Source of the DNA: Acidobacteriota bacterium
GTDB lineage: Bacteria > Acidobacteriota > Thermoanaerobaculia > Gp7-AA8
Direction of reading: 5' to 3'
Assembly: GCA_039932995.1 (NCBI GenBank)
Contig: JBDTOZ010000826.1
Span: 1-58,096 of the forward strand
DNA length: 58,096 nucleotides
Shown: positions 9,703 through 52,781 of the stretch, in pieces
Layout of the letters: each line of letters starts with the position of its first letter
Position numbering within the stretch: the first letter of the stretch is position 1
Made by a program: the position numbers and the translations under genes
The notes under the pieces: model-generated
The model's input: only the letters and a program-made list of their open reading frames with translations
Database searches by the model: none
Told to the model about the DNA's origin: nothing

Positions 9703-10836
9703 GTGTACCATCCCGCCGTGTCCCTTGAATCCTCCGTGTCGGGCGTGCTGCGTAACCGACTCAAATCAGGAGACTTGCCGTTCGGCGAATTCGTCGAGCT
9801 GGTCCTCTACCACCCGCAATTGGGCTACTACGCCCGGGGTCAGAACCCGGTGGGGAAGGAGGCCGATTACGTCACCGCGCCCTTGCTCAGCCCGGTCTTT
9901 TCGTTCGCTTTGGGCAACCTCATCCAGGAGTTCCTGCGCCGACATGAGGGCGAGCTGTGCTCAATTGTGGACATCGGTTGCGGAGATGGCAGCCTGATCT
10001 GCGATCTCGCCTCGCGAGGTGAAGGGCAAACCACTCGATTCATTGGCGTCGATCGCGCGCTGGCCAGAGTGAACAGGGGTTCGTCTGAGAAGGGCCGGCC
10101 CGTCGAGTTCGTCAGCTCCCTCGAAGGGGTCCCGCGTGGGGGTTGCCATTTGATCGTGTCCAACGAGCTCTACGACGCTTTCCCGTTCTCCCGGCTGGTC
10201 CGGCGCGGCGACCGGATTCACGAGCTTTACGTGACGGAACGCGGAGGCGCGCTGGATTGGAGCGAACAGAGGGCACCTGAGGCTTACGAAGACTACTTCG
10301 CGGAACGGGGAGTGGCCTTGGACGAGGGACAGTTCGCGGACGTCTCGCTGGCCTGGGAAACCTTTCATGAGGAGGTCCTGCGCCTCGTGAAGCGGGGCCT
10401 CATCGTCACCATCGATTACGGATTCCCGGCGGAGAAGCTGTTTCATCCGCGCGCGCGTCGATTCGGAACGGCGGCGGCGTATGCGGGGCAGCGGGTCTCC
10501 CGCGATCTGCTGGCGAGCCCCGGCCAGCAGGACCTCACGGCGCACATCAACTTCACCGATTTGGAGCGGGCGGGAGCGCGCGAAGGTGCGCGAACCCTCT
10601 TCTTCGACCGGCTGGCCCGGTTTCTTCTGACCCTCGACATCACCAGCCACGAGCTGTTCCGTCCCGTACACGAGGTGGAGATCGCCAGCGCACAGGAAGG
10701 GGTGGACCTGCTTCAGGCTCGCGAGGACGCACGCCGGCTGGTGCTTCCTGACGGCATCGGCGAGGAGATGCGCGTGCTCGTCCAATCCAAGGGGGCGGAG
10801 ATGGAAGGCTGGTCGTTTCAGCGGGCGCTGTTTTAA
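9703..10836 (+). CDS. class I SAM-dependent methyltransferase, MidA/NDUFAF7 (DUF185) family
   Basis: FGEFVELVLYHPQLGYY...DYVTAP and IVDIGCGDGSL (SAM motif I) are typical of MidA. GTG start at 9703; an alternative GTG lies at 9718. Confidence 0.8.
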   Translation: MYHPAVSLESSVSGVLRNRLKSGDLPFGEFVELVLYHPQLGYYARGQNPVGKEADYVTAPLLSPVFSFALGNLIQEFLRRHEGELCSIVDIGCGDGSLICDLASRGEGQTTRFIGVDRALARVNRGSSEKGRPVEFVSSLEGVPRGGCHLIVSNELYDAFPFSRLVRRGDRIHELYVTERGGALDWSEQRAPEAYEDYFAERGVALDEGQFADVSLAWETFHEEVLRLVKRGLIVTIDYGFPAEKLFHPRARRFGTAAAYAGQRVSRDLLASPGQQDLTAHINFTDLERAGAREGARTLFFDRLARFLLTLDITSHELFRPVHEVEIASAQEGVDLLQAREDARRLVLPDGIGEEMRVLVQSKGAEMEGWSFQRALF

Positions 10837-10849
10837 CGCTTTGCGTTTT

Positions 10850-10999
10850 GTTGCTGGTTGCTGGTTGCTGGTTGTCTGCGGTGTATCGCCAGCCGGCAAC
10901 GCCGCGGAAGTACAACGTAGCAACCAGCAACCAGCAACCAGCAACCAGCAACCAGCAACGTAGCAACGTAGCAACGTAGCAACCAGCAACCTTCAGCAA
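10850..10999. repeat. heptamer-array palindrome, GTTGCTG type
   Basis: Left arm is (GTTGCTG)x3 then GTTGTCTGCGG (10850-10881). Right arm is CCGCGG ... (CAACCAG)x5, (CAACGTAG)x3, CAACCAG (10902-10999). Confidence 0.85.
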
Positions 11000-11052
11000 C
11001 TTTTGAAACGAAAACGTGATCCGCGTCACTACAGAGCGTGGGTACCGCTTCG

Positions 11053-11391
11053 ATGAGCTTTCCTTCCCCCGACCACTCCGCCGCGGACGAGCGGTGGGGC
11101 AACCAATGGCAGGCGCGGGCGATGCGGCTGCGCTCGATCGAGCGTAGCGCGCGCACGGGCGACGTGTCGTTCGGAGCCAGGCGCTGGGCCGTGACCACGT
11201 TGCGGAGAGAGGCGGCGTTCCTCGAGCGCCGCTTCCTCCGCACCGGCGAGCCGCTCGAGGAAGGATACGGAAACTACTACCTGGCGCTCGGTCTCTTCGT
11301 GGCCGGAATGACCCGTTCCCTGAGCGTGGCCACGCGTCACGCACGGGATGAGGATCGGGCCTTTCCGCACTCATTGATCTTCCTTTCTTGA
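11053..11391 (+). CDS. hypothetical protein (weak call)
   Basis: G/C-rich third codon positions and mixed amino-acid composition. No recognisable motif. The competing antisense ORF is Arg-rich. Confidence 0.3.
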   Translation: MSFPSPDHSAADERWGNQWQARAMRLRSIERSARTGDVSFGARRWAVTTLRREAAFLERRFLRTGEPLEEGYGNYYLALGLFVAGMTRSLSVATRHARDEDRAFPHSLIFLS

Positions 11392-11415
11392 CTCTCCCGG
11401 AACGCGGGCTAGAAT
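11388..11415 (+). promoter_or_regulatory. candidate sigma70-type promoter of the nuo operon
   Basis: TTGACT (11388-11393), 16-nt spacer, TAGAAT (11410-11415). The ATG at 11414 lies inside the -10 box, which argues for the nuoA start at 11447. Confidence 0.5.
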
Positions 11416-11446
11416 GGCCGCGGTCTCCAAGTCAGGCGAGCGAAGA

Positions 11447-11806
11447 ATGGCAAACTACTCAGTGCTGCTGGTAGCCGTGCTCATCGTATTGTCGGTCCCG
11501 GTGTTGACTCTGTTCGTCCTTGCGCCCCTGGTCCGCGCTTCGGTCCGAAACAAGGTCAAGCTCGAGCCCTACGAGTGCGGTGTGGCCCCCACGTCCCTTG
11601 CATTCGACCACCGTTTTTCGGTGCGGTACTTCCTCATTGCCGTCCTCTTCATCGTCTTCGATGTCGAGACAGTCTTCCTCTTCCCCTGGGCAATCCGGTT
11701 CAAACAGCTCGGCTGGCTCGGAGCCGCCGAGATGGCAGTGTTCCTGGCGATTCTCCTGGTCGGCTATTACTACGCCTGGAAGCGGAAGGTTCTCACATGG
11801 GTCTGA
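11447..11806 (+). CDS. nuoA: NADH-quinone oxidoreductase subunit A
   Basis: [16 protein letters not shown]..., YECG, FDVE..FLFPW motifs. The ORF is open from 11414, but that start overlaps the predicted -10 box. Confidence 0.85.
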
Positions 11807-12816
11807 TCGAGAACCGCTTCGAACCGAACGTTCTCACGACGACCGTCGACAAGTTTTTCAATTGGGCCCGCAAATCGTCGTTGTGGCCGATGCAGTTCGG
11901 TCTGGCCTGCTGTGCCATCGAGATGATGGCGGTTCTGGATCCCCGGCATGACATGGCCCGGTTCGGGGCCGAGGTCTTTCGCGCCACTCCACGCCAAGCG
12001 GACCTGATGATCGTCTCCGGCACGGTCACCGAGAAGATGGCCCCGATCGTCCGCCGCCTGTGGGATCAGATGCCCGATCCGAAGTGGGTGATCGCCATGG
12101 GCTCCTGTGCGACCTGCGGCGGTCCCTATGACACGTACGCCGTCACGCAGGGAGTCGATCGTCTCATCCCGGTGGATGTCTACATCCCTGGTTGTCCTCC
12201 CCGCCCCGAAGCGTTGATCTGGGGCCTCATGGAGCTGCAGAAGAAGATCGAGAAGATGCACATCCTCCGCAAGGGGGGAGAGGCGTACGACTTCGCTCGC
12301 GCCGCGGTGCGCGATTCGCTTCGTCCGGTCCATGAGGGGCCGGCGCTCCGCGCCGAGCAGGCGGCGCAGCTCAAGCCTGCTCCGATCTCGGGAGTGAAGC
12401 GCGCTCCGTCGGTTCCGGCCCCACCGAAACCGGTCCGTCCGGTGGCCGAGGCTGCGGCTCCGGTGGAAGGGGACGTCACGCAGGCGGACATCGAGCAGGC
12501 GGCCGCGCCTGAGCTGGTGCCGGGGGACGGCTCGGATGGTGCGTCGCCCACGGCGCCGTTCCACCGCGAAGATCTGATGCTCGTCGAGCGCATGCAGCTC
12601 GCCAACGAGATGGGCGGCAAGTTGGAGACGAAGTTGTTCGCGGCCATGGCGCAGACCGACTGCGGAGCCTGCGGCTGGGATTGCGAAGGCTACGCAAACG
12701 CCATCGCCACCGGGGAGACCGACGACATCTCATTGTGCGTCCCCGGCGAGACGGAGACGCTGGACATGCTCAAACTGTTGATGGAGGAGGCCGGGAAGCC
12801 GTTCACGGGCGCGTAA
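11797..12816 (+). CDS. nuoB: NADH-quinone oxidoreductase subunit B fused to a C-terminal RnfB-type 4-Cys Fe-S domain
   Basis: Canonical N2-cluster motifs [18 protein letters not shown] and GCPPRPE lie in residues 1-155. A Pro/Ala-rich linker follows, then [34 protein letters not shown]. The start overlaps the nuoA end. Confidence 0.9.
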
Positions 12817-12822
12817 GAGTCT

Positions 12823-13009
12823 GTTGCTGGTTGCTGGTTGCTGGTTGTCCGCGGGCCGTCGCTGAGCGATGGTCTTTCGGAGAACCGGCAACCGGGAACC
12901 TGCAAGTGAAGGTCGCAGGTTCCCCGTTCCTGTTTGCTGGGTGTTGGTTTCTCCGAGCGGATCGCTTGCGCGATCGGCCGCGGACAACCAGCAACCAGGA
13001 ACCAGCAAC
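12823..13009. repeat. nested heptamer-array palindrome filling the nuoB-nuoC spacer
   Basis: Outer arms 12823-12854 and 12978-13009 are complementary at 31/32 positions. An inner imperfect hairpin spans 12879-12903 / 12915-12954. The left arm differs by 1 nt from 10850-10881. Confidence 0.9.
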
Positions 13010-13012
13010 CGA

Positions 13013-13783
13013 ATGTCAGAGCAACCACCGCCAGGCCCGACTCCTCCTCCCGTCGCGCCGCCCGCGCCCGCGGGCCGGACCGTCGACGACATGAAGCGCG
13101 ACCCACTCGTGGCCGCGGCGGTCTCGCGCGCCGGCGAGGCCGTCCTCGATGCCCGCGAGATGGTGGGGGAGTTGACGCTCTTCATCGAGTGTGACCGGAT
13201 CGCGGAGGTCTGTCGCGTCTTCAAGGACTCCGGATTCGTCTATCTGGTCGACCTCTGCGGCGTGGACTACTCGCAGTTCCCGAATCACACCGGTCCGCGC
13301 TTCACCGTGGTCTACACGCTCTACTCTTTTCAAAAGAACGCGCGCGTGCGTCTCCGCGTCTGGACCGACGGCACCGTCCCGTCGGTGACCTCGGTCTGGA
13401 AGACCGCGAACTGGCATGAGCGCGAGACCTTCGACATGCTGGGCATCGACTTCACCGGTCACCCGAACCTCGAGCGCATCCTCATGTGGGATGGCTTCAA
13501 TGGTCATCCACTGCGCAAAGACTTTCCGGTGCGCGGCATCGACACCGGCGCGCGCATCTATCCCGAGGTCTTCCCACCGGGTGGCGGCCCAAAGGCGGGA
13601 TCGACGGGCAAGGACGTGAAGGACGTGAACGTCTACAAGGGCGAGTGGAAGCGCTACGGGCAATGGCCGGTCGCGCAGATCGGCGGCGGAGCTCCGGCCG
13701 CGAAACCGGCCGCACCGAAACCGGTGGCCAAACCGGTCGTCGCCGCGGCGCCTGTCGAAGCTCCGCCCGAGGAGGAAGCGTGA
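13013..13783 (+). CDS. nuoC: NADH-quinone oxidoreductase subunit C with Pro/Ala-rich N- and C-terminal extensions
   Basis: NWHERE.FDM.GI.F.GHP..RIL core motif. Alternative start ATG at 13091 (MKRDPLV). Confidence 0.85.
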   Translation: MSEQPPPGPTPPPVAPPAPAGRTVDDMKRDPLVAAAVSRAGEAVLDAREMVGELTLFIECDRIAEVCRVFKDSGFVYLVDLCGVDYSQFPNHTGPRFTVVYTLYSFQKNARVRLRVWTDGTVPSVTSVWKTANWHERETFDMLGIDFTGHPNLERILMWDGFNGHPLRKDFPVRGIDTGARIYPEVFPPGGGPKAGSTGKDVKDVNVYKGEWKRYGQWPVAQIGGGAPAAKPAAPKPVAKPVVAAAPVEAPPEEEA

Positions 13784-13802
13784 TGTTGCCGCCGACGCTC
13801 CC

Positions 13803-13830
13803 GGCAACCGCCAACCACCAACCGCCAGCA
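13803..13830. repeat. one-armed heptamer array (GGCAACC GCCAACC ACCAACC GCCAGCA) in the nuoC-nuoD spacer
   Basis: 7-nt periodicity read directly. No clear complementary arm nearby. Confidence 0.5.
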
Positions 13831-13888
13831 GGCGAGGCATCTCTCCTGCCGGCTGCCAACTGCGACCTGCCGAGCGCGGAGGTGGGGA

Positions 13889-15004
13889 ATGTTTGACGTC
13901 CATGAGATGGAGGTCAACTTCGGGCCGCAGCACCCGTCGACCCATGGCGTGCTGCGCGTCATCCTCAGGATCGACGGCGAGCGGATCATCGACGCCAAAC
14001 CGATCATCGGCTATCTCCATCGCGGCACCGAGAAGCTCTTCGAGCACATGGCCTATCCGCAGTGCATTCCGCACACGGACCGCATGGACTACGTGGCCTC
14101 GGCCACCAACAATCTGGGGTTCGTCGAGACCGTCGAGAAACTGCTCGGCGTCACGCACCTGATTCCCCGCCGCGCGCAGATCCTGCGCGTGATCCTGTCC
14201 GAGCTGCAGCGCATCTCCTCACACCTGCTCTGGCTGGCCACGCACGCCATCGACCTCGGTGCGATGACGCCGTTCTTCTACACCTTCCGCGAGCGCGAGC
14301 AGGTCCTGGACTTTTTCGAGTCCTACTGTGGTGCCCGTCTGACGCTGAACTGCATGCGCATCGGGGGCATGCCCGAAGACATTCCGCCGCGCTGGCTCGA
14401 GGACATCGAAGCCTTCATCGACAAGTTCGAGGACGCCATCGACGAGTACGAGTCGCTGCTGACGAACAACCGCATCTGGAAGAAACGCACCATCGGCATC
14501 GGCGTGCTCTCTCCCGAAGACGCGATCGACTGGGGCATCACCGGACCGCCGCTGCGCGGGAGCGGCGTGGAGTGGGATCTCCGCCGGGCCCAACCCTACG
14601 AGATCTACCCCGAGCTCGAGTTCGAGGTCCCTATCGGGAAGAACGGCGACACCTACGATCGCTACCTCGTACGCATGGCCGAGATGCGCCAGTCGCGGCG
14701 CATTCTCAAGCAGTGCATTCCCCTCATCAAAGCCACGCCGGTGGGGGATCTGAAAGCCAAGATCTCCAAAGTGATCCGGCCGCCGGCAGGGGAGGTCTAT
14801 CACTCCATCGAGTCCCCGAAGGGGGAGCTGGGCTATTACATCGTCAGCGACGGCAAGACCCAGAACGCCTATCGCTGCCACGTGCGGCCCCCCTCCTTCG
14901 TGAATCTGCAGGCACTGCCCGCGCTCACCAAAGGACACCTGGTCTCGGACCTCGTGGCCCTCATTGGAACGATCGACATCGTGCTCGGCGAGGTGGACCG
15001 GTGA
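13889..15004 (+). CDS. nuoD: NADH-quinone oxidoreductase subunit D
   Basis: NFGPQHPSTHGVLR, YLHRGTEK, and C-terminal DIVLGEVDR. Confidence 0.95.
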   Translation: MFDVHEMEVNFGPQHPSTHGVLRVILRIDGERIIDAKPIIGYLHRGTEKLFEHMAYPQCIPHTDRMDYVASATNNLGFVETVEKLLGVTHLIPRRAQILRVILSELQRISSHLLWLATHAIDLGAMTPFFYTFREREQVLDFFESYCGARLTLNCMRIGGMPEDIPPRWLEDIEAFIDKFEDAIDEYESLLTNNRIWKKRTIGIGVLSPEDAIDWGITGPPLRGSGVEWDLRRAQPYEIYPELEFEVPIGKNGDTYDRYLVRMAEMRQSRRILKQCIPLIKATPVGDLKAKISKVIRPPAGEVYHSIESPKGELGYYIVSDGKTQNAYRCHVRPPSFVNLQALPALTKGHLVSDLVALIGTIDIVLGEVDR

Positions 15005-15099
15005 GGATGGGATTGAGGATTGAGGATTGTGGATTGAGGATGGGAAGAGGACGGATGGCCACGCCCATCCTCAATCCTCAATCCTCAATCCTCAATCCC
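15003..15099. repeat. heptamer-array palindrome, GGATTGA type, in the nuoD-nuoH spacer
   Basis: 15009-15044 pairs with 15064-15099 at 35/36 positions; 19-nt loop. It begins inside the nuoD stop codon and ends 20 nt before the nuoH ATG. No U-tract follows. Confidence 0.9.
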
Positions 15100-15119
15100 G
15101 TTCTCCCAGGAGAGACGCG

Positions 15120-16256
15120 ATGAGTCCCGTGATCCTGAAGTATCTCCTCTGGCCGCTGGTCAAGTTCCTGGTGGCCTTCCTGATCGTTCAGATCATCGTG
15201 GCGGCGATGAACTGGGTGGAACGGCGGCTGCTGGGCTTGTTCCAGGCCCGGCTTGGACCCAATCGCGTCGGTCCGGGCGGGCTGCTGCAGATCATCGCCG
15301 ACCCGATCAAGTTCCTGCTCAAGGAAGACATCGTTCCGTCGAGCGCAGAGCGGATTGCCTACTTTCTCGGACCGATCTGGCCACTCATCCCCGCCTTCCT
15401 GGTCTTCTGCCTGATCCCGTTCGGTCCGCCGCCGATGTTCATCGCGGCGCGCGTCAACGTCGGCCTGCTGCTGATCCTGGCCATGACCTCCACCGCTGTT
15501 TACGGGATCATCCTCGGCGGCTGGGCCTCGAACAACAAGTACTCGCTGATGGGCGGCCTGCGCTCGGCCGCACAGATGGTCTCGTACGAAGTTCCCTTCG
15601 GACTCTCCATCGTGGGCGTGCTGATGATCTGCGGCACGCTCGATCTGGTGACGATCGTCCGGTACCAGGAGACCAACGCCTGGAACTTCCTCCCGCAGAT
15701 CGTGGGCTGTTTCATCTTCTTCGTCTCGATGGTGGCGGAGAACAACCGCACGCCCTTCGACCTCCCGGAAGCGGAGTCCGAGCTGGTGGCGGGTTATCAC
15801 ACCGAGTACTCGGCGATGAAGTTCGCGTTCTTCATGCTGGCCGAGTATTCGATGATGATCGTCAACTCCTGCCTCATCGTGACGCTCTTCTTCGGGGGCT
15901 GGACGCTGGGGATGTTCGAGCTCGGTCTGACCACCGACGTCCTGGTGGGGATGGGGGTGATGGGCGGCGTCATCGGCGCGGTGATCTTCTTCGTCAAGGT
16001 GATGCTGTTCCTGCTGGTGTACGTCTGGTTCCGGGCCACGTTCCCGCGGTATCGCTTCGATCAGCTCATGGACCTCGGCTGGAAGTTCCTGATTCCCCTG
16101 GCGCTGGCGAACATCGTCGTGACCGGGGGGTTCATCCTGGCCGGTCAGGAGCGGCTGATGTACTGGATCGGCGCCGGGACCATCGCCCTCACGGCATTCT
16201 TCCTCTTCCGACCGAAACGCAAGCGCGCCCCGCAGAAGGTGGCTCATGCAAGTTGA
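15120..16256 (+). CDS. nuoH: NADH-quinone oxidoreductase subunit H
   Basis: ERRLLGLFQARLGPNRVGP, polytopic, EAESELVAGYHTEYS motif. GGAGAG RBS at 15109-15114. Confidence 0.95.
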   Translation: MSPVILKYLLWPLVKFLVAFLIVQIIVAAMNWVERRLLGLFQARLGPNRVGPGGLLQIIADPIKFLLKEDIVPSSAERIAYFLGPIWPLIPAFLVFCLIPFGPPPMFIAARVNVGLLLILAMTSTAVYGIILGGWASNNKYSLMGGLRSAAQMVSYEVPFGLSIVGVLMICGTLDLVTIVRYQETNAWNFLPQIVGCFIFFVSMVAENNRTPFDLPEAESELVAGYHTEYSAMKFAFFMLAEYSMMIVNSCLIVTLFFGGWTLGMFELGLTTDVLVGMGVMGGVIGAVIFFVKVMLFLLVYVWFRATFPRYRFDQLMDLGWKFLIPLALANIVVTGGFILAGQERLMYWIGAGTIALTAFFLFRPKRKRAPQKVAHAS

Positions 16257-16782
16257 GTATCCGAAGCCGAGGTGGACGGACAAGTTCCTGCTCCTGGACA
16301 TGCTGGAGGGGTTGAAGACCACGTTGCGTGAGCTCTTCAAGCCCAAAGTCACGATCCGTTACCCGGAAGAGCGCATGGAGCCGGCGGATCGGTTCCGGGG
16401 CATGTTCAAGTTCTCCTACGACCGCTGCATCGCCTGCAAACTGTGCGCGGTGGCCTGTCCCATCGACATCATCTACATCGACGTCCACGACGACATCATC
16501 GAAGAGGGCGGCAAGAAGAAGAAGGTCAAGGTCCTGGACCGGTATGACATCGACGTGAAGCGCTGCATGTTCTGCTCGCTTTGCGAGGAAGCCTGTCCCA
16601 CGAAGCCGAAGTCGATCTGGCTGACCACCAAGACTTACGAGCTGGCCAGCTACGACCGCAACGATCTGTACTTCAACATGCAGCAGCTCGAATACTGGGA
16701 CGACCGGCCCAAGTACACGGGATTGCCCGGCGATGACACCGGTGCGGATGACGGGAAGCTGATCGCAGGAGGCACGAAGTGA
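16246..16782 (+). CDS. nuoI: NADH-quinone oxidoreductase subunit I
   Basis: Two 4Fe-4S motifs, CIACKLCAVACP and CMFCSLCEEACP. Confidence 0.95.
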   Translation: MQVEYPKPRWTDKFLLLDMLEGLKTTLRELFKPKVTIRYPEERMEPADRFRGMFKFSYDRCIACKLCAVACPIDIIYIDVHDDIIEEGGKKKKVKVLDRYDIDVKRCMFCSLCEEACPTKPKSIWLTTKTYELASYDRNDLYFNMQQLEYWDDRPKYTGLPGDDTGADDGKLIAGGTK

Positions 16783-16793
16783 GCGATGCACGC

Positions 16794-16863
16794 GGAAGGA
16801 TGAACGATGAACGTGGGCACGCTGCCCGGCTCATCGTCCATCACTCGTCGTTCATCGTTCTCC
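16794..16863. repeat. heptamer-based palindrome (GATGAAC type) in the nuoI-nuoJ spacer
   Basis: GAACGATGAACG pairs with CGTTCATCGTTC. The right arm shows a 7-nt period (CTCATCG TCCATCA CTCGTCG TTCATCG). Confidence 0.7.
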
Positions 16864-16873
16864 ACGAACACAC

Positions 16874-17554
16874 ATGGAATCCGTAACGAGCCAGATCCCT
16901 CTCCTCGTCTTCATGGTGATCGGAACGATCGCCGTGGCTTCCGCCATTCTGGTGGTGGCCATGCGCAATCCCGTGCACTCCGCGTTGTTCCTGCTCCTGA
17001 CGTTCCTCTGCGTGGCCGTGCTGTTCGTGATGCAGTCCGCCGAGTTCGTGGCGGCCGTGCAGGTGCTCGTGTACGCGGGCGGAATCATGGTGCTGTTCCT
17101 CTTCGTGGTCATGCTCATCAATTACCGGCACCTCCCGGAGGAGGCCGTGTTGTCGAAGGTCTGGCTGGGGGGAGTGGGCGTCGGCCTGGCGGTCTTCATC
17201 CTCTTTTTCACCATGGTGCGCAACGGGGTCTACGCGGACCAGGTGCCTGACGCTTCGAAGAAGCTGGGCACCGTCACCGAGCACTACGTCACCGAGCACC
17301 CCAGCGATCCGAACAAGATGGTGCGACGCACACGCGAACGCGAGAACCGCAACTCCGAAGCGGTGGCCATGGCGCTCTACAACAAGTACCTGGTCCCCTT
17401 CGAAGTGGCCTCGCTGTTCCTGCTCGTGGCCATGATCGGCGCGATCGTGATTGGCAAACGCGAGCTCTCCGCCGAGGAAGAGGAGTCCACGCCGCAATTC
17501 ATCCTGGAGCGCGCGGAAGTGGAGAAGGAAGTGAAGGAGGCCATGAGTGCGTGA
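16874..17554 (+). CDS. nuoJ: NADH-quinone oxidoreductase subunit J
   Basis: [40 protein letters not shown]. Confidence 0.9.
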
Positions 17555-17607
17555 CGTGCGCCGGATGCTCGTGGCTTCTTCGCCGGCCTTCTCCCAGGGA
17601 GGGCGGC

Positions 17608-17910
17608 ATGCCTAGCACCGCTCAATATCTGATGCTGTCGGGCACTCTGTTCGCCATTGGACTGATCGGAGTGATCGTGCGACGCAACATGATCACGGTG
17701 CTCATGTCCATCGAACTGATGCTCAACGCCGTGAACATCAACCTGGTGGCCTTCTCCCACCGCCTGGCCGACCTGGAGGGTCAGGTCTTCACGGTCTTCG
17801 TGATCACCGTGGCCGCCGGCGAAGCAGCCGTGGGCCTGGCCATCATCATCCAGTTGTACCGGCTGCGCAGCACCGTGAATGTGGACGAGGTGAAGACCCT
17901 TCATGGTTAA
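17608..17910 (+). CDS. nuoK: NADH-quinone oxidoreductase subunit K
   Basis: 100 aa from the ATG at 17608, with a GGGAGG RBS upstream. [16 protein letters not shown] and [11 protein letters not shown] motifs. Confidence 0.9.
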
Positions 17911-20062
17911 AGAAGCCCTGATCCTCGTGGTCCTGCTCCCCGCGCTCGGCGCGCTGATCAATGGTCTGCGCGCCGCCGCGAATCCGCATGCGCCGAAGAA
18001 CAAGACCGTGACCAAAGCGGTGGCGTTGGGAGCGACACTGCTCTCGGCCCTGACGGCCACAGCCGGTGTGGTCCTCCCGTACCTGGGCCAGCACCAGGCT
18101 TTGAAGTTCTCGTATTACGAGTGGATCCCCGCGGGCATGGGCTCGGTCGGCTCCGCCATTGCGAACTTCTCGGTCGAGCTGGCCTTCCGGATCGATCCGC
18201 TGTCCTGCACCATGCTCATGATCGTGACGTGGGTGGGCTTCCTCATCCACGTCTACGCCACCGGCTACATGGCCCACGAAAAGGGCTACACGCGCTTCTT
18301 CACCTACCTCAATCTGTTCATGTTCATGATGCTGCTGCTCGTCCTCGGGGCGAACTACATGGTCATGTTCGTGGGGTGGGAAGGGGTCGGGCTCTGCTCC
18401 TATCTCCTCATCGGGTTCTATTACGACAAGAACTTCGCCGCCGACGCCGGGAAGAAAGCGTTCATCACGAACCGCATCGGCGACTTCGGCTTCATCCTGG
18501 GCGTCTTCCTGATCTTCAACACCTTCGGCACCGCGGATTACGAGAAAGTGTTCGCGCTCGCTGCCAGCGGCGGGATGGCGCAGTACGGCGGGATGGCCAC
18601 GGCCATCTGCCTGCTCCTGTTCGTCGGCGCGGCCGGCAAATCCGCCCAGGTGCCGTTGTACGTGTGGCTACCCGACGCGATGGCCGGACCGACTCCCGTC
18701 TCCGCGCTCATCCACGCCGCGACGATGGTCACGGCCGGCGTCTACATGGTCGTTCGCTCCAATGTGCTGTTCCGCATGAGCGAGACCGCCTCCATGACCG
18801 TGGCCATCGTGGGCGCGGTCACGGCGATCTTCGCGGCCACGATCGGGATCGCCCAGAACGACATCAAGAAGGTCCTCGCGTACTCGACGGTATCGCAGCT
18901 GGGATTCATGTTCCTGGCCGCAGGGGTGGGCGCGTATACCGCCGCGATCTTCCACGTGATGACGCACGCCTTCTTCAAGGCCTGCCTCTTCCTCGGCGCC
19001 GGATCGGTCATTCACGGCTGCGGCGGGGAACAGGACATGCGCAAGATGGGCGGTCTGCGAAAGTACATGCCGTCCACGCACTGGACCATGGCCATCGCCA
19101 CCTACGCCATCGCCGGGCTGCCTTTCGCCGCGGGATTCATCTCCAAGGACGAGATTCTCGCCAATGCCTGGGGCTATGCGCCGGCCATCTGGACCGTCGG
19201 GGCCATTGCCGCGGGCTTCACCGCCTTCTACATGGCCCGGCTCTATTTCATGACGTTCTGGGGCACGTATCGGGGCGCACAGACCGTGGGAATCGAGCAG
19301 TCCGAGCCCGAGCACGCGGGCCACGATCTGATCCCGGACCGTCCGCACCTCGATGATGGGGACGCGCACGCCGGCAAGGCCCACGGTCACCACGCGCACT
19401 CCCATGATCCGCACGAGTCCCCGGCATCGATGACCGGCGTGCTCTGGATTCTCGCCGCGCTTTCCGTCCTGGGCGGTTTCATCGGCTGGCCCGCGGCGTT
19501 GGGCGGCTCGCATCCCACGCCCTTCCAGCGCTGGCTGGAGCCGGTGCTGTTGCCCATCGCTGGGCAGGCATTTCATTTCCACGAGGCCGCGCACTCGCTG
19601 GAATGGATCCTGATGGCCATTTCCGTGGGCATCGCGGCATTGGGCGTGCTGCTCGCGTATCGCCTCTATGTCCGCAGGCCGCCCGTTCCGGACGTCCTGG
19701 AGCCGCGTCTCGGCCCCGTGTACCACCTGCTCGCCAACAAGTATTGGGTGGACGAGCTCTATGACGCCACCGTCATCGCCGGAACGCTGGCCTTCAGCAG
19801 GATCCTCTGGTGGATCGATGCGAACATCGTGGACGGCATCGTCAACGGCGTTCGGCACGTGACGGTGATCGCACTCGGATACGGCTCCAACCTGTTCGAC
19901 CGCTATGTCATCGACGGCGCCGTGAACGGCGTGGCCGCGGGTGCCAAGGGCGGATCCATGATGTTTCGACGCATGCAGAGCGGTCTGGTGCAGAACTACG
20001 CTCTGGTGATGGGCGGTGGCATCGTCCTGATTGCACTCGTGTACCTGTTCATGAAGCCGTAA
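17903..20062 (+). CDS. nuoL: NADH-quinone oxidoreductase subunit L
   Basis: 719 aa antiporter-like subunit. [14 protein letters not shown], and a His-rich loop before the C-terminal lateral helix. Confidence 0.95.
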
Positions 20063-20078
20063 GGGAGAGCCAGTCGCG

Positions 20079-21686
20079 ATGATTCTCAACCTGATCACTT
20101 ACATCCCGCTCATCGGAGCGCTGTTGATCCTGTTCTTCGTGAACAAGGCGAACACACGGGCCATCCGCTGGCTGGCCACCGCGACCGTGGTCGTGGACTT
20201 CATCGTCTCGCTCTACATCTGGTTCAACTTCAATCCCGCGGGGACCGGGGATGGTCTTTGGCAGTTCCAGTACATCGCGGACTGGATTCCGTCCCTCGGA
20301 GTGAAATATCACTTCGGTGTCGACGGCATTTCCGTGCTGCTCATCCTCATGACCACGTTCATGGGCATCATCGCCGTGGTCTCTTCCTATACGGCGGTCC
20401 ATCATCGCGAGAAGGAGTACTACGCCCTGCTGCTGATGCTCCAGACGGGCATGATCGGCACGTTCTGCGCGCTGGACTTCTTCCTCTTCTATGTGTTCTG
20501 GGAAATCATGCTCGTGCCGATGTACTTCATCATCGGCATCTGGGGTGGACAGCGAAAGCTCTACGCGGCCATCAAATTCTTCCTCTACACCCTGGCCGGC
20601 TCCGTATTGATGCTGTTGTCGATCCTGGCGCTCTTCTTCTTCAATGATGGCGGCATCTCCTTCCTCAACATTCAGGGGCTGGGCAACGGGGCCTCGTTCA
20701 GCGTGCTGAAGTTCCATGAGATCGGGCATCTCATCCCGCCTTCACTGCAGTTCTGGATCTTCCTGGGCTTCTTCTTCGGCTTCGCCATCAAGGTGCCGAT
20801 GTTTCCGTTCCATACCTGGCTGCCCGATGCGCACGTGGAAGCTCCCACGGCCGGCTCCATCATCCTGGCGGCGGTGCTGCTGAAGATGGGCACGTACGGG
20901 TTCGTGCGGTTTGCGTTGCCGATTCTTCCCGATGCCACGAGGCAGCTCCTGGTGCCCATCGCGGTGCTGGCTCTCATCGGGATCATCTACGGTGCGCTGG
21001 TGTCGCTGGTGCAGAAGGACATGAAGAAGCTGGTGGCCTACTCTTCGGTCTCCCACCTCGGCTTCGTGATGCTGGGGATGTTCGCTCTCAACCCGATGGG
21101 TCTGCGGGGCTCCATCCTGCAGATGATCAACCACGGCATTTCCACGGGGGCGCTCTTCCTGCTCGTGGGGATGGTTTATGAGCGCCGCCACACCCGCATG
21201 ATCGCGGACTACGGCGGTCTCGCGAAACAGATGCCCCTGTACGCGGCCCTGTTCCTCATCGCGGCGCTCTCTTCGATGGGCTTGCCGGCGCTCAATGGCT
21301 TCATCGGCGAGTTCACCATCCTGCTCGGTGTAGCCAATTCCACCGCCTACGGGACGATGGCCTATGCGGTCATCGCCGCGGTGGGAATCGTGCTTGGCGC
21401 CGCCTACCTGCTCTGGCTCTATCAGCGTGTGTTCTGGGGACCGCTCGACAATCCCGCCAATGCCGCGCTGCAGGACGTCAACCGGCGCGAGTTGGGGATG
21501 ATGCTGGCCCTGGTGGTGCTCATGATCTGGATCGGCATCTATCCGAAGCCACTCTTCGACGCTATCGAACAGCCGGTCGATTACATCGTACGGAAGGTCG
21601 ACCCCACCTATTTCGACAAGAAGCCCCTTTCGTATCCGGCTACTCCCGCCGCGGTCGAAGAGCACCATGAGGTCGCGGTCAAATGA
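20079..21686 (+). CDS. nuoM: NADH-quinone oxidoreductase subunit M
   Basis: Antiporter-like; FYVFWEIMLVPMYF, HTWLPDAHVEAPT. Confidence 0.95.
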   Translation: MILNLITYIPLIGALLILFFVNKANTRAIRWLATATVVVDFIVSLYIWFNFNPAGTGDGLWQFQYIADWIPSLGVKYHFGVDGISVLLILMTTFMGIIAVVSSYTAVHHREKEYYALLLMLQTGMIGTFCALDFFLFYVFWEIMLVPMYFIIGIWGGQRKLYAAIKFFLYTLAGSVLMLLSILALFFFNDGGISFLNIQGLGNGASFSVLKFHEIGHLIPPSLQFWIFLGFFFGFAIKVPMFPFHTWLPDAHVEAPTAGSIILAAVLLKMGTYGFVRFALPILPDATRQLLVPIAVLALIGIIYGALVSLVQKDMKKLVAYSSVSHLGFVMLGMFALNPMGLRGSILQMINHGISTGALFLLVGMVYERRHTRMIADYGGLAKQMPLYAALFLIAALSSMGLPALNGFIGEFTILLGVANSTAYGTMAYAVIAAVGIVLGAAYLLWLYQRVFWGPLDNPANAALQDVNRRELGMMLALVVLMIWIGIYPKPLFDAIEQPVDYIVRKVDPTYFDKKPLSYPATPAAVEEHHEVAVK

Positions 21687-23161
21687 CGTGGGGCGACACG
21701 CTGTACCTTCTTCCGGAGATCGTCATCTCCCTGGGTGCATGCCTGCTGTTGCTTGCGCCGGTGAGCGGCCTCCGGATGGGGAGTGGGGCGGCGAAATGGG
21801 TGATGCTGGCTTTGCTCGCGCTCACGGCCGGCGCGCTCTTCGCCGCCTCGTATCTGGTGACCACCGGCCCCGATCCGACCCCCGGCTTCGCGTCGATGTT
21901 CGCTCTCGACTCGTTTTCGATCTTCTTCAAGCTCCTGTTCATCGTGACCATGGCCATGATCACGCTGCTTTCGGATACGTTCCTGCGCGATTCGCGGTAC
22001 TCGCCATGGGAGTATTACTCGCTGCTCGCGTTCGCGTTGTGCGGAATGATGTTCATGGCCAGCGGCATCCACCTGGCGGCCATCTACATCGGCCTGGAGC
22101 TGATGTCGCTGTCGAGCTACATCCTGGCCGGATACTTCAAGAACGAACAGAAGAGCACCGAGGCGGCCATGAAGTATTTCGTGCTCGGCGCGGTGAGCTC
22201 GGCCATCCTGCTGTATGGGATCTCGCTGATCTACGGAGTGACCGGCACGCTCAACCTGGCAGGTGTGTCGCGCTCCCTCTCCACGCTGGTCAGCAATGAC
22301 GCCTTGATGTTCGGGATCATGATGTTGGGCGCGGGGCTGTGTTTCAAGATCGCCGCGGCTCCGTTTCACATGTGGACCCCCGACGTGTACGAGGGGGCGC
22401 CCACCCCGGTCACGGCGTTCCTCTCCACCGCTTCCAAGGCCGCGGCCTTCGCCATTTTCGCGCGCATCTTCTACACCGGCATGCACCACTTCCGCCTGGA
22501 CTGGCAGAACGTCCTGGCCGCAATCGCCGCTCTCTCGATGGTGGTGGGCAACCTGGCCGCCATCACCCAGGACAACGTGAAGCGCATGCTCGCCTACTCG
22601 TCCGTGGGTCATGCGGGCTACGTGTTGCTGGGTGTTCTCGCGGCCAACGAGATGGGCCTGTATGGCGTGCTCGTTTACGCCGTGGTGTACGTGTTCGCCA
22701 CGCTGGGGATCTGGGCCACCGTGCTGATGCTGGAGCGCGGCGACTACGCCGGGGAGAAGGTGGACGACTTCAATGGCCTGAATTCCCGGGCCCCGTTCTG
22801 GGCCTTCGCCATGATCGTCTTTCTGCTGTCGCTGGGCGGCATTCCCCCTACGGCCGGCTTCATCGGGAAGTACCTCCTCTTCTACGCCGCGGTGCAGTCC
22901 GGGTTCGGCTGGCTGGCCGTGATCGCCGTGCTGATGTCGGCGGTCTCGATGTTCTTCTACTTCCGCCTGGTCATGGCCATGTACCTGAAGGAAGGGCGAG
23001 AGGCCAGACTGACCGGCGGCGGCTCGCTGAAAGTGGTGGCCTTGATCGCGCTGGCGGTCACCCTGATTTTCGGAATCCTTCCGCAGCCGTTGATCCAGTC
23101 GGCGAAGGATTCGGGGCGCAGAGTGGCCACCCGGCCGACGGCCGCCCTGCTCGGACGATGA
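21683..23161 (+). CDS. nuoN: NADH-quinone oxidoreductase subunit N
   Basis: Antiporter-like; GLELMSLSSYILAG, APFHMWTPDVYEGAPT. The start overlaps the nuoM stop. Confidence 0.95.
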   Translation: MTWGDTLYLLPEIVISLGACLLLLAPVSGLRMGSGAAKWVMLALLALTAGALFAASYLVTTGPDPTPGFASMFALDSFSIFFKLLFIVTMAMITLLSDTFLRDSRYSPWEYYSLLAFALCGMMFMASGIHLAAIYIGLELMSLSSYILAGYFKNEQKSTEAAMKYFVLGAVSSAILLYGISLIYGVTGTLNLAGVSRSLSTLVSNDALMFGIMMLGAGLCFKIAAAPFHMWTPDVYEGAPTPVTAFLSTASKAAAFAIFARIFYTGMHHFRLDWQNVLAAIAALSMVVGNLAAITQDNVKRMLAYSSVGHAGYVLLGVLAANEMGLYGVLVYAVVYVFATLGIWATVLMLERGDYAGEKVDDFNGLNSRAPFWAFAMIVFLLSLGGIPPTAGFIGKYLLFYAAVQSGFGWLAVIAVLMSAVSMFFYFRLVMAMYLKEGREARLTGGGSLKVVALIALAVTLIFGILPQPLIQSAKDSGRRVATRPTAALLGR

Positions 23162-23164
23162 GCA

Positions 23165-23374
23165 GTGGAAGATAAGAAGAAGGAAGAGGCCCGGAACCTG
23201 CTCGAGGCCTCGTCCATCGCCTGGATGTTCCCGATCGCCATCGGGCTGGGGTTCGGCTGGGGCTACCTGATGGACCGATACTTCGGGACCTCTCCCTGGT
23301 TGACGGCGATCTTCACGGTCTGCGGCGTCGTTGCCGCGTTCGTCAATCTCTTCCGCATCGGCCTCAAAGAATGA
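23165..23374 (+). CDS. AtpZ/AtpI-family small membrane protein
   Basis: 69 aa, two TM helices, GTG start 4 nt after the nuoN stop. It occupies the usual position ahead of atpI and atpB. Confidence 0.7.
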   Translation: MEDKKKEEARNLLEASSIAWMFPIAIGLGFGWGYLMDRYFGTSPWLTAIFTVCGVVAAFVNLFRIGLKE

Positions 23375-23775
23375 CCTCCCAGCCCCCGTGGTACGAGCGG
23401 GAAGAGCCGGCCGATGTGCTCCGGCGCATCAAGCGGACGGCCTTGGTGGCGGCGGTCGCGTTTGCCGCTTTCTGTGCGTTTTCAGGGGGTTTTCGCGGCT
23501 TTCTCGGGTTGACTTGTAGTGCTGCCGTCACTATGATCAGCTTCCTTTGGTTGGAGGAGATCGTGAATGTTCTCCTGCAACCGGCGGCACACCTGCACGC
23601 TCGGAGGCTGACGTTGCGTACCCTGGCGCGCTTCGCTCTCCTTGGTGTGGCGCTCACGGTCACGATCATCATTGCTCGTTTCAACGCGGTCAGTGTGTTG
23701 CTGGGATTCTCAATCATCGTGGTGGGGATTTGCGGCGAAGCTCTGTATTCGCTCTATCGAAGTATCGCTGAGTAA
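23371..23775 (+). CDS. atpI: ATP synthase protein I-like membrane protein
   Basis: 134 aa, 3-4 TM helices. ATGA overlap with the upstream gene; lies immediately before atpB. Confidence 0.65.
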   Translation: MTSQPPWYEREEPADVLRRIKRTALVAAVAFAAFCAFSGGFRGFLGLTCSAAVTMISFLWLEEIVNVLLQPAAHLHARRLTLRTLARFALLGVALTVTIIIARFNAVSVLLGFSIIVVGICGEALYSLYRSIAE

Positions 23776-51287: not shown

Positions 51288-51354
51288 GCTGGTTGGCGGT
51301 TGACGGTTCAACCGCGACGACAACCCCAACCGCAACCGCCAACCGATACCAACC
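51288..51354. repeat. heptamer-array palindrome (GGTTGGC/GGTTGAC type) abutting the tpiA ATG
   Basis: GGTTGGCGGTTG (51291-51302) is exactly complementary to CAACCGCCAACC (51333-51344). Both arms show 7-nt periodicity. Confidence 0.75.
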
Positions 51355-52689: not shown

Positions 52690-52781
52690 GGTTACTGGTT
52701 GCTGGTTGTCTGTGGTGTTCGGTTCTTGCGATCCGCATCGCTAGTTACGAAAAACCCCAGACAACCAGCAACCAGCAACAG
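52690..52781. repeat. heptamer-array palindrome, GTTGCTG type
   Basis: GTTACTGGTTGCTGGTTGTCTG (left) against CAGACAACCAGCAACCAGCAAC (right), 21/22 complementary, with a loop of about 40 nt. It lies between convergent genes. Confidence 0.85.

Follow-up and report, generated by a model that had tools for sequence, protein, structure and literature searches.

The four long spacers of the nuo operon in this soil acidobacterium are probably copies, or remnants of copies, of a foldback family that is dispersed over the whole genome; they would be gene-less passengers, cleavable by RNase III at the nuoB/nuoC (B/C) and nuoD/nuoH (D/H) junctions. This reading is deflationary for nuo. The hairpins would be local instances of a repeat that occurs all over the genome rather than a regulatory layout, and so would give no new rule for the expression of complex I; their pattern would reflect insertion opportunity and tolerance rather than a design of Nuo expression.

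The window, the whole analysed stretch of 58,096 nucleotides, is from a Thermoanaerobaculia MAG and carries the nuo operon on its + strand. nuoA (11447-11806) was located through tblastn matches in relatives rather than by Pfam. The other genes were called by Pfam, all on the + strand: nuoB (11797-12816; PF01058 and PF04060), which overlaps nuoA by 10 nt and whose product has an Fe-S domain as its C-terminal extension, nuoC (13013-13783; PF00329), nuoD (13889-15004; PF00346), nuoH (15120-16256; PF00146), nuoI (16246-16782; Fer4 families), which overlaps nuoH by 11 nt, nuoJ (16874-17554), nuoK (17608-17910), nuoL (17903-20062), nuoM (20079-21686) and nuoN (21683-23161). The nuoC ATG at 13013 opens an N-terminus (MSE...) that is conserved in relatives, including those with empty junctions. 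The junctions measure -10 nt (A/B), 196 (B/C), 105 (C/D), 115 (D/H), -11 (H/I), 91 (I/J), 53 (J/K), -8 (K/L), 16 (L/M) and -4 (M/N). Each of the four long spacers (B/C, C/D, D/H and I/J) has period-7 arrays by TRF, while the J/K spacer has no repeat by TRF and no structure by folding (z +0.25). The gene map, overlaps, spacer lengths and array-free J/K spacer given in the earlier note were all correct, and its view that the hairpins are unlikely terminators was borne out, as a scan found a terminator-like hairpin with a T-run in none of the four spacers. A consensus scan likewise found no promoter-like site in these spacers; the sole such site on the + strand from 10700 to 23500 is TTGACT-16-TAGAAT at 11388-11415, a match by consensus scan only, shortly 5' of nuoA.

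It had been claimed that heptamer hairpins stand at exactly four junctions. This holds for B/C and D/H, where the hairpins are far beyond chance (z about -10), but not for C/D, which is a half element, and I/J is only an eroded one. The B/C element (12820-13012; inverted repeats I2 and I8, and fold) has outer arms of (GTTGCTG)3-GGTTGTCCGCGG at 12820-12862 with the complement at 12970-13012, and its loop holds a nested second heptamer hairpin of the AACCGGC type (12883-12935). It folds with an MFE of -130 kcal/mol (z -10.05) and a near-continuous outer stem of 32 bp. In its right arm a GGAAC variant unit lies 12 nt 5' of the nuoC ATG and is retained in seven other species. The arms have more than 350 genome matches in 184 contigs, while the loop is unique. 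The D/H element (14998-15110; inverted repeat I1, and fold) consists of about five units each of GGATTGA and TCAATCC around a loop of 19-25 nt, depending on the arm boundaries. The 47-nt arms of I1 are 89% complementary and fold (-76.3 kcal/mol, z -9.68) into a quasi-continuous helix of 37 bp with one mismatch. The left arm overlaps the nuoD TGA and the SD AGGAGAG (15108-15114) comes after the stem; here too the loop is unique and the arms recur, with about 150-200 genome matches in 43 contigs.

The C/D spacer (13784-13888), analyzed by TRF, folding and blast coverage against the genome, contains a CCGCCAA-type array (13801-13827) and a CTGCCNN-type array (about 13843-13872), both C-rich and in one orientation, followed by the SD GGAGGTG. 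Only right-arm-type sequence is present, as in the C/D ortholog of the nearest relative (L001), and no significant hairpin forms (z -1.37; 18 of 200 shuffles fold equally well). The I/J element (16783-16860; TRF arrays at 65-66% match) has degenerate (GAACGAT)n and (ATCGTTC)n arms, folds with -37.2 kcal/mol (z -3.6) and has no further copy elsewhere in the genome; its longest perfect helix is 7 bp, against 16 bp in the intact L001 ortholog. A further foldback of the GTTGCTG family, seen as TRF arrays, lies upstream of the nuo promoter region at 10850-10991, with a left arm of 3.6 units and a right arm grown to about 10 units including octamer variants (-80.6 kcal/mol, z -8.9); its arms match hundreds of genome loci. 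The nuo loops, 19-137 nt long, are all unique in the genome. Logan contigs break at the hairpins.

In the whole genome, TRF reports 1,313 period-7 and 1,010 period-8 rows, which merge into 1,803 arrays and make up 1.06% of the genome; these figures are minima, because the repeats fragment the assembly. The typical element has two arms of about four tandem 7- or 8-nt units each (median 4.3), with the G/T-rich arm first, and the 422 strictly paired elements have a fixed polarity (GTTGCTG-first in 112 against 1). In a spacer census based on a crude home-made gene caller, arrays occupy 15.5% of the spacers between co-directional genes, 13% of those between convergent genes and 18.6% of the divergent ones. 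The stronger the codon bias of the genes on either side, the higher the occupancy, which rises from 5% to 33% (p = 8e-24); this trend is present in co-directional and convergent spacers and weak in divergent ones. Occupied junctions are clustered (odds ratio 3.0, p = 1e-8). At the co-directional rate, four occupied nuo junctions out of ten have P = 0.055, and they look ordinary when set against the 33% found for genes of strong codon bias; this number is unremarkable. Nor are the elements specific to this operon. A second set of nuo genes (C489, C197) has arrays downstream of nuoD, in the L/M gap and downstream of M, and all classes of intergenic spacer carry them. No covariance model of Rfam 15 was matched at gathering score; the weaker hits were to generic models of miRNA precursors with long hairpins.

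The same junctions were compared in 34 related species with a NuoD identity of at least 82%, a junction being counted as occupied when its spacer is at least 50 nt. Filled junctions were found in 14 of 30 species at B/C, 13 of 33 at C/D, 26 of 33 at D/H, 7 of 30 at I/J, 10 of 26 at J/K, 10 of 27 at K/L and 7 of 23 at L/M. None was filled at A/B (0/28) or H/I (0/30), where the genes overlap by 10-26 nt; A/B is -10 in 28 of 28 close relatives. In the relatives a variable junction is either a stop/start overlap or a spacer of about 60-210 nt. Where no element is present, the genes overlap by ATGA (in L006 and L017, for example) or ATGTTTGA, or lie 0-13 nt apart, at matching places, whilst filled junctions retain the upstream stop and most have an SD adjoining the downstream ATG. 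The check on relatives that had been proposed earlier thus came out for insertion, with tight or overlapping junctions in relatives that lack the elements. This comparison shows that elements were inserted at junctions that originally overlapped or were a few nucleotides long, and that any junction able to take an insertion may be occupied, which the A/B and H/I overlaps never are.

The comparison also shows that the elements, whose placement is specific to the lineage, were gained, lost and swapped rapidly between species. Parsimony on a 37-taxon tree gives 6-12 state changes per junction, and L001 has six filled nuo junctions against four in the window. Five different D/H elements occur in one tight clade (L007, L012, L013, L016 and L018), and L012 and L016, in spite of 98% amino-acid identity, differ even in unit length, with heptamers in one species and octamers in the other. 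In L001, D/H and I/J hold one and the same element, including the loop, in opposite orientations. The unit sequences at a given nuo junction differ widely between species, and 24 congeners have between 0 and about 250 matches to the (GTTGCTG)3 family, against 543 here.

The window and L002 or L025 have a 4-fold-site identity of 0.55-0.56, yet arm stretches of about 25-33 nt are identical, including a rare variant unit, and in general the arm sequence is conserved across species with 4-fold sites only 53-56% identical. Conservation so far above the neutral expectation requires either selection or continual homogenisation. At D/H of L007 and L013 the flanks and the loop are kept, while every unit in both arms is changed at two shared positions; such a concerted change means that the palindromic, periodic build is actively maintained.

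The elements have a link to a gene-bearing cassette. In two relatives (L033 and L034) the D/H junction holds this form, with a PF05635 gene (E = 1e-34; rRNA-IVS protein) in the loop, within heptamer arms. PF05635 resembles Avd, a protein of DGRs (PMC10053308), and a PF22296 match supports this likeness. The present genome has three PF05635 genes. Two are bracketed by TRF arrays, of the families GGTTGGC and CACAGTCT, and the third has degenerate complementary flanks, judged by eye. None of the three is associated with the families that occupy nuo (GTTGCTG, GGATTGA and GAACGAT), and no remnant of a PF05635 ORF was found in 267 loops genome-wide, those of nuo included. The nuo copies are at most gene-less derivatives of this hairpin cassette.

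At the RNA level, we propose that in a single nuoA-N mRNA the B/C and D/H elements would fold into duplexes of 32-37 bp, and that RNase III would probably cleave these and so split the transcript into nuoAB, nuoCD and nuoH-N pieces. An RNase III gene is present in the genome, and cutting of the 32- and 37-bp stems is plausible by analogy with the Coxiella 23S rRNA IVS, which also bears tandem heptamers and a PF05635 ORF and in which RNase III cuts in vitro within the 28-bp stem of the terminal inverted repeats (PMC4990558). The nuoC start lies directly against the B/C stem, and cleavage may also be needed to release it. Little effect would be expected from C/D and a weak one from I/J, and any shift in relative subunit output would be a lineage-specific by-product. 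No sign of sense-strand selection at the RNA level is seen in the 174 co-directional elements, of which the antisense folds slightly better (105 against 66, p = 0.003); G-U pairs number 552 in sense and 742 in antisense. Several results speak against this passenger reading: the conservation of the arms, their concerted change in L007 and L013, the clustering of occupied junctions and the link of occupancy to codon bias, which a purely deleterious passenger would not show. This last trend is compatible either with an insertion process tied to transcription or with an advantage where well-expressed genes have their 3' ends.

An unlikely option, which takes up these points, is that the foldbacks form the gene-less bulk of an "operonic IVS" system, one that is actively kept rather than just tolerated. 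Elements would insert into transcribed DNA, both where a stop meets a start and in hairpin loops that already exist, and RNase III would excise them from the mRNA, as for rRNA IVSs. Through this excision an insertion would do no harm, and might even help at the 3' end of a well-expressed gene. A templated process or gene conversion, possibly via the Avd-like PF05635 protein, would renew the arms together as one unit. This would explain the concerted change of two arms with constant flanks and loop in L007 and L013, the identity of arms in spite of the divergence at 4-fold sites, and an occupancy that reaches a third at junctions of strong codon bias.

Another hypothesis is close to that of the earlier note, in which the hairpins set subunit stoichiometry. 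Here they would be adaptive mRNA punctuation, processing sites or barriers to 3'-exonucleases, kept for segment-specific stability or translation of the nuo mRNA as in REP/BIME. We regard it as unlikely, even though the B/C and D/H stems are long and very stable and lack U-tracts, RNase III is encoded, the arms are conserved above the neutral rate, an SD is retained or gained at filled junctions, and elements are enriched next to genes of strong codon bias where the spacer includes a gene 3' end. The literature offers further support: REP325 makes the mRNA upstream of it more stable and also attenuates read-through (bioRxiv 10.64898/2026.03.23.713779), many operons are reshaped by differential decay (PMC5927463), and the STRR hairpins between hupS and hupL were proposed as transcript stabilisers (PMC2670836). 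Yet a conserved punctuation does not agree with the 6-12 flips of occupancy per junction, nor with the six filled junctions of the closest relative. Just two of the four elements are long duplexes, C/D having no hairpin and I/J decaying; the sense strand has no folding advantage, and divergent spacers are filled as often as others. The claim that the elements separate modules fails as well, as B/C and C/D lie within the Q module and the module boundaries A/B and H/I are never occupied. Furthermore, complex I contains one copy of each subunit, so differential stoichiometry is not needed. What stays of the earlier comparison with REP/BIME is a dispersed palindromic family within operons; a conserved stoichiometry device does not.

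Recruitment of a protein, instead of RNA folding, might also be the role of the tandem units, although we consider this improbable. They would be DNA- or RNA-binding sites for a global regulator, or for a PF05635/Avd-like ring protein that reads about five units, and could act in nucleoid structure, transcription pausing or maintenance of the elements. The build of each arm from about 4-5 units of family-specific sequence, and the conservation of this sequence between diverged species, point in this direction, as does the location of PF05635 genes inside arrays of particular families and the likeness of their product to Avd. The GTTGCT motif also occurs in the class 1 "global regulator binding sites" of Geobacter metallireducens, which are paired on opposite strands at a variable distance with four tandem units (PMC2700814). 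Against it, the binding protein is putative, there are only three PF05635 genes and none for the three nuo families, the units at one junction vary widely among species, and the palindromic pairing is left unexplained. That the hairpins are pause or attenuation sites, or Rho-dependent terminators reducing read-through into distal nuo genes, is very improbable: RNA polymerase can pause at strong hairpins, REP325 attenuation is partly Rho-dependent (bioRxiv 10.64898/2026.03.23.713779) and the unpaired C-rich arrays of C/D resemble a short rut-like tract, but no stem is followed by a T-run, no internal promoter-like site compensates, divergent spacers carry the elements too, and the 11 nuo genes are needed equally, so that progressive attenuation at four sites would starve the distal antiporter subunits.

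With the nuo hairpins taken as local copies, the interest moves to the repeat class itself, about 1% of the genome. Arrays terminate 281 of 1,906 contig ends (about 15%), which breaks short-read assemblies and lowers the quality of soil Acidobacteriota MAGs. In core operons this class converts translationally coupled overlaps into structured spacers of 100-200 nt, and its two arms show an unusual concerted evolution. If RNase III cuts the stems, many housekeeping operons would be expressed as segmented mRNAs with break points that differ between sister species; this, if true, would be a natural experiment on the importance of operon mRNA architecture.

Several known systems are similar in part. 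The RNase III sites of phage T7 (Dunn and Studier 1973, as cited in PMC4990558) are likewise stable stem-loops between cistrons of a polycistronic mRNA and are cut by the enzyme; cleavage here is a prediction. The elements here are repetitive, (near-)perfect duplexes, with a position that is not conserved. T7 sites, in contrast, are unique, conserved, evolved signals whose internal loops direct single cuts, and cleavage there can leave a protective 3' stem and a free downstream ribosome-binding site.

Like REP/BIME (REPIN) of E. coli and other Proteobacteria, the elements are dispersed, high-copy extragenic palindromes that lie between cistrons in operons, form stable predicted RNA stem-loops that lack U-tracts, and are found at different places in different strains or species; for some REP/BIME copies context-dependent mRNA stabilisation and attenuation were demonstrated. 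A REP is a single imperfect palindrome of 20-40 bp, while each arm here is 25-45 nt long and built of tandem 7-8-nt units, which form many families, and the loops are mostly unique and not copied. By our crude gene calls, divergent spacers are not depleted and there is no preference for gene 3' ends, unlike REP. A partnership with a RAYT (Y1 transposase, PF01797) was rejected, as none of three Y1_Tnp genes lies between paired arrays; two have single unrelated arrays about 500 nt or more away and the third has none.

The units GTTGCTG, GGATTGA, GAACGAT and CCGCCAA probably differ from those of the cyanobacterial STRR1-3. STRR heptamer hairpins share the tandem 7-bp units that can fold between co-transcribed genes, and for the one between hupS and hupL a role in transcript stability or translational coupling was proposed (PMC2670836). 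In the STRR-type fold test B/C and D/H pass, I/J is weak and C/D fails. The present elements belong to another phylum, have a paired, inverted, fixed-polarity layout as the rule, number about 1,800 arrays and are linked to PF05635.

Similar in build are classes 1-3 of Geobacter metallireducens, sites that come in pairs, one on each strand, with a variable distance between them and 3-5 tandem units of 7-8 nt apiece, whose class 1 consensus GTTGCTYN has the GTTGCT core in common with the B/C arms (PMC2700814). Those sites number tens of copies, not hundreds as here, and were described from sequence alone, without an analysis of evolutionary turnover or operon junctions in that paper. The Coxiella burnetii 23S rRNA IVS (helix 45; S23p, which is PF05635) has complementary heptamer arms as at B/C, D/H and I/J, with the PF05635 ORF in the loop between them. 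Stem cleavage is a result for Coxiella and a prediction for nuo, and the host transcript here is an mRNA whose four nuo copies are gene-less and have no detectable ORF remnant. The nuo elements are ordinary members of a partly described repeat class, and the gene-in-hairpin form of the IVS recurs at the nuoD/nuoH junction of L033 and L034.

The window belongs to an assembly of 6.78 Mb (953 contigs, 64.8% GC), and its NuoD relatives are soil MAGs labelled Acidobacteriota/Thermoanaerobaculia. By Pfam, nuoB, C, D, H, I, J, K, L, M and N lie on the plus strand, and nuoA was positioned from tblastn matches in relatives. With gene starts set by conservation, the junctions measure -10 nt at A/B (negative values are gene overlaps), 196 nt at B/C, 105 nt at C/D, 115 nt at D/H, -11 nt at H/I, 91 nt at I/J, 53 nt at J/K, -8 nt at K/L, 16 nt at L/M and -4 nt at M/N, which bears out the gene map and spacer lengths of the earlier note. 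Its heptamer arrays were also recovered: each of the four long spacers contains TRF arrays of period 7, and J/K contains none. Two short Logan contigs encode an identical NuoD and stop within the D/H spacer, ~35 nt (L081) and ~90 nt (L082) beyond nuoD. The window's NuoB carries a C-terminal extension of ~185 amino acids (12262-12816) with a PF04060 'putative Fe-S cluster' domain (E = 3.6e-6) at its end; because no nuoE, F or G is found between nuoD and nuoH, this extension may be an alternative electron-input module.

The claim that hairpins stand at exactly four nuo junctions holds only in part when the spacers are folded: those at B/C and D/H are strong and that at I/J is a decaying hairpin, but C/D is a non-hairpin remnant. 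The B/C element (12820-13012; MFE -130 kcal/mol, z -10.05) forms a near-continuous outer stem of 32 bp with a second heptamer hairpin nested inside its loop, and the D/H element (14998-15110; -76.3 kcal/mol, z -9.68) a 37-bp stem with one mismatch. The I/J spacer (-37.2 kcal/mol, z -3.6) is eroded, its longest perfect helix being 7 bp compared with 16 bp in the ortholog of the nearest relative, L001. At C/D the structure is not significant (-46.3 kcal/mol, z -1.37); this spacer holds two C-rich arrays in like orientation, which is right-arm-type sequence only, and L001 carries this half element too. A search of Rfam at a permissive threshold returned only generic long-hairpin miRNA models, all below threshold. 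In the right arm of the B/C element (12985-13015) the penultimate unit reads GGAAC and not GCAAC, ~12 nt upstream of the nuoC ATG. This unit is the sole mismatch in that stretch of the stem, is kept in 8 species and resembles an SD that was recruited out of the repeat. Other foldbacks occur in the window. The one upstream of nuoA (10850-10991) is asymmetric, with 3.6 left units and ~10 right units including three GCAACGTA octamer variants, and therefore one arm can expand without the other. A compact GGTTGGC/CCGCCAACC foldback (51291-51345) ends 9 nt upstream of the start codon (ATG) of the gene at 51355, and a GGTTGCT/CCAGCAA foldback (52690-52779) carries the GGTTGTCTG inner motif of its family.

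One of the questions raised by these spacers regards their origin. We fetched 80 nuo loci and measured the junctions from tblastn-anchored stops and starts; the starts of relatives were assigned by alignment, and single spacer lengths may be off by a few codons. Among 34 species with NuoD identity of at least 82%, a spacer of at least 50 nt is found in 0/28 at A/B, 14/30 at B/C, 13/33 at C/D, 26/33 at D/H, 0/30 at H/I, 7/30 at I/J, 10/26 at J/K, 10/27 at K/L and 7/23 at L/M. Where a site is empty, stop and start overlap (ATGA at D/H and I/J, ATGTTTGA at C/D) or stand 0-13 nt apart; examples are the ATGA of L006 and L017 and the ATGTTTGA of L003. Therefore the spacers are insertions into otherwise short junctions and are not older than the elements, as had been proposed. 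Arrays of 7 or 8 nt are present in 56 of the 87 long spacers, and some of the remaining ones hold another palindromic repeat of the GTCATCCTGAGC type. This GTCATCCTGAGC...GCTCAGGATGAC-type repeat fills D/H in L018, I/J in L019 and L026 and C/D in L034, and the I/J spacer of L020 contains a ~66-nt unit repeated three times in tandem.

Parsimony on a NuoD and NuoH tree requires 6-12 changes of occupancy per junction. L001, with 96% NuoD identity, is filled at B/C, C/D, D/H and I/J as here and also at J/K and K/L, and its D/H element is of another family than that of the window; it matches L001's own I/J copy, loop included, as one element in reversed orientation. The tight clade of L007, L012, L013, L016 and L018 has five different D/H elements, and L012 and L016, at 97.8% protein identity, carry a heptamer element in one and an octamer element in the other. 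Filled D/H sites read CGATGA, the element and a further ATGA; this pattern fits a target-site duplication, of ATGA or of a longer GAGGTGGAxCGATGA, and would be equally expected if selection had favored a stop codon, an SD and a start codon there. The array unit resembles the local stop/start sequence at some junctions (CGATGAA at D/H and I/J; the L008 array is in phase with the nuoI end), which is suggestive of a local derivation of the unit at these sites; the likeness is absent at others, such as B/C.

The same kind of repeat is abundant in the whole genome, where TRF gives 1,313 rows of period 7 and 1,010 of period 8, with AACCAGC (390), AACCGCC (366), ACGACTCG (194) and AATCCTC (74) as dominant families. 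Merging leaves 1,803 arrays, or 1.06% of the genome DNA; these counts are lower bounds, since 281 of the 1,906 contig ends lie inside an array. The 422 strictly paired foldbacks have a fixed polarity with the G/T-rich arm first (for example, GTTGCTG-first in 112 vs 1), a median arm of 4.3 units and a median loop of 68 nt, and nesting is frequent. The arms of the B/C and D/H elements match hundreds of loci and their loops are unique; across the genome, a relative elsewhere was found for 117 of 267 loops. The (GTTGCTG)3 family counts 543 matches here; 24 congeners have between 0 and ~250, and beyond the genus the family almost disappears. A second, paralogous nuo set (40-54% identity) is spread over several contigs (C489, C197, C92, C29 and C687), with arrays between L and M and downstream of nuoD, nuoH and M; its fragmented assembly may be due to these repeats.

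In a census made with a home-made, crude gene caller, the share of spacers with arrays is 15.5% for co-directional, 13% for convergent and 18.6% for divergent ones, unlike the REPs of E. coli with their 3'-end bias. Occupancy rises strongly with codon bias in the adjoining genes; with only the 3' halves of confident genes used, it is 5.4% for the lowest quartile and 33.3% for the highest (p = 8e-24). On array-bearing contigs this trend holds for co-directional and convergent spacers and is weak for divergent ones, and within contigs it is small and significant. It may reflect transcription-linked insertion, a benefit, or core as against recently acquired regions. Filled junctions also cluster (odds ratio 3.0). 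Because of this clustering and the dependence on codon bias, the nuo operon looks like other operons of strongly codon-biased genes; its 4 filled junctions out of 10 (P = 0.055 at the genome-wide co-directional rate) were rejected as a sign of special placement given the codon-bias classes.

As far as sequence comparison goes, the loci show the elements to be gene-less foldback repeats that insert into permissive stop/start junctions and existing hairpins. They are tolerated, since the stop survives insertion and an SD is retained beside the ATG in most filled junctions. We favor, with some reserve, the reading that they are passengers whose processing is incidental. An RNase III gene is present in the genome, on contig C945, and the B/C and D/H duplexes in the nuo mRNA would probably be cut by this enzyme, which would yield nuoAB, nuoCD and nuoH-N segments and might free the start of nuoC, 3 nt from the -130 kcal/mol stem.

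Constraint on the arms could speak for an adaptive punctuation of the nuo mRNA. Between the window's locus and L002 or L025 the 4-fold-site identity is 0.55-0.56, yet arm stretches of ~25-33 nt match exactly, a rare variant unit among them. In the orthologous D/H elements of L007 and L013 (4-fold-site identity 0.65) the flanks and loop are conserved and all units of both arms differ at two shared positions, (AACCAGA)n/(TCTGGTT)n vs (AGGCAGA)n/(TCTGCCT)n; this is a concerted replacement of entire arrays on both arms. Arm conservation, concerted change, the GGAAC unit and the codon-bias trend fit a continual homogenization, by array slippage and arm-to-arm correction, together with host adaptation of a passenger, and are also compatible with a benefit to the host. 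Among 174 co-directional elements the antisense RNA folds better in 105 and the sense in 66 (p = 0.003), with fewer sense G-U pairs; an excess of G-U pairs on the sense strand, which would have pointed to selection at the RNA level, was rejected, the small bias being in the opposite direction. The four-point regulatory punctuation of nuo claimed in the earlier note is not supported, as placement is not conserved among relatives and only two of the four elements form long duplexes. Nor do the elements separate modules, since B/C and C/D lie within the Q module and the module borders A/B and H/I are never filled. Complex I contains, and needs, a single copy of each subunit, and differential stoichiometry is therefore not required. 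We therefore regard adaptive punctuation as unlikely. Equally doubtful is the reading of the arrays as protein-binding sites in the manner of Geobacter metallireducens, whose paired tandem octa- and heptanucleotide sites (PMC2700814) have a class 1 unit, GTTGCTYN, with a core common to the B/C unit. Transcriptional attenuation by the hairpins is very improbable; the scans found zero terminator-like T-runs in the four spacers, in agreement with the view that they are not terminators, and no promoter-like site inside them, one such site lying upstream of nuoA.

Another question is how such elements are mobilized. At the nuoD/nuoH junctions of L033 (1321-1862) and L034 (2455-3039), a 147-amino-acid gene of the 23S rRNA IVS protein family PF05635 (E ~1e-34, with a weaker bAvd-like match) occupies the loop between inverted heptamer arrays (GAGTTGT/CTCACAA); at a junction that is filled gene-less in the window, these relatives thus have the element in its gene-bearing form. 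The genome itself has three PF05635 genes, two of them between TRF-detected arrays of families also found gene-less and the third with flanks that by eye are complementary and degenerate. The nuo copies have no ORF or detectable ORF remnant, and tblastn of the 267 loops gave zero PF05635 matches at E < 0.1; this lack neither proves nor excludes that gene-less elements arose by loss of the gene. A RAYT/Y1 transposase as cognate mobilizer was rejected on current evidence; Y1 genes are present and are not flanked by paired arrays.

REP/BIME elements are functionally close (bioRxiv 10.64898/2026.03.23.713779), and the RAYT and location evidence place the nuo elements outside REP/REPIN. The closest described things also include the STRR heptamer hairpins that lie between hupS and hupL (PMC2670836), the Geobacter sites mentioned above and the ORF-bearing rRNA IVSs. 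The 23S rRNA IVS of Coxiella combines a 28-bp stem with tandem heptamers and an S23p ORF, and its stem is cut in vitro by RNase III (PMC4990558); a PF05635 gene within heptamer arms, as in L033, L034 and this genome, is the same build. The nuo elements fit gene-less members of this known but poorly characterized heptamer-hairpin/IVS-cassette kind.
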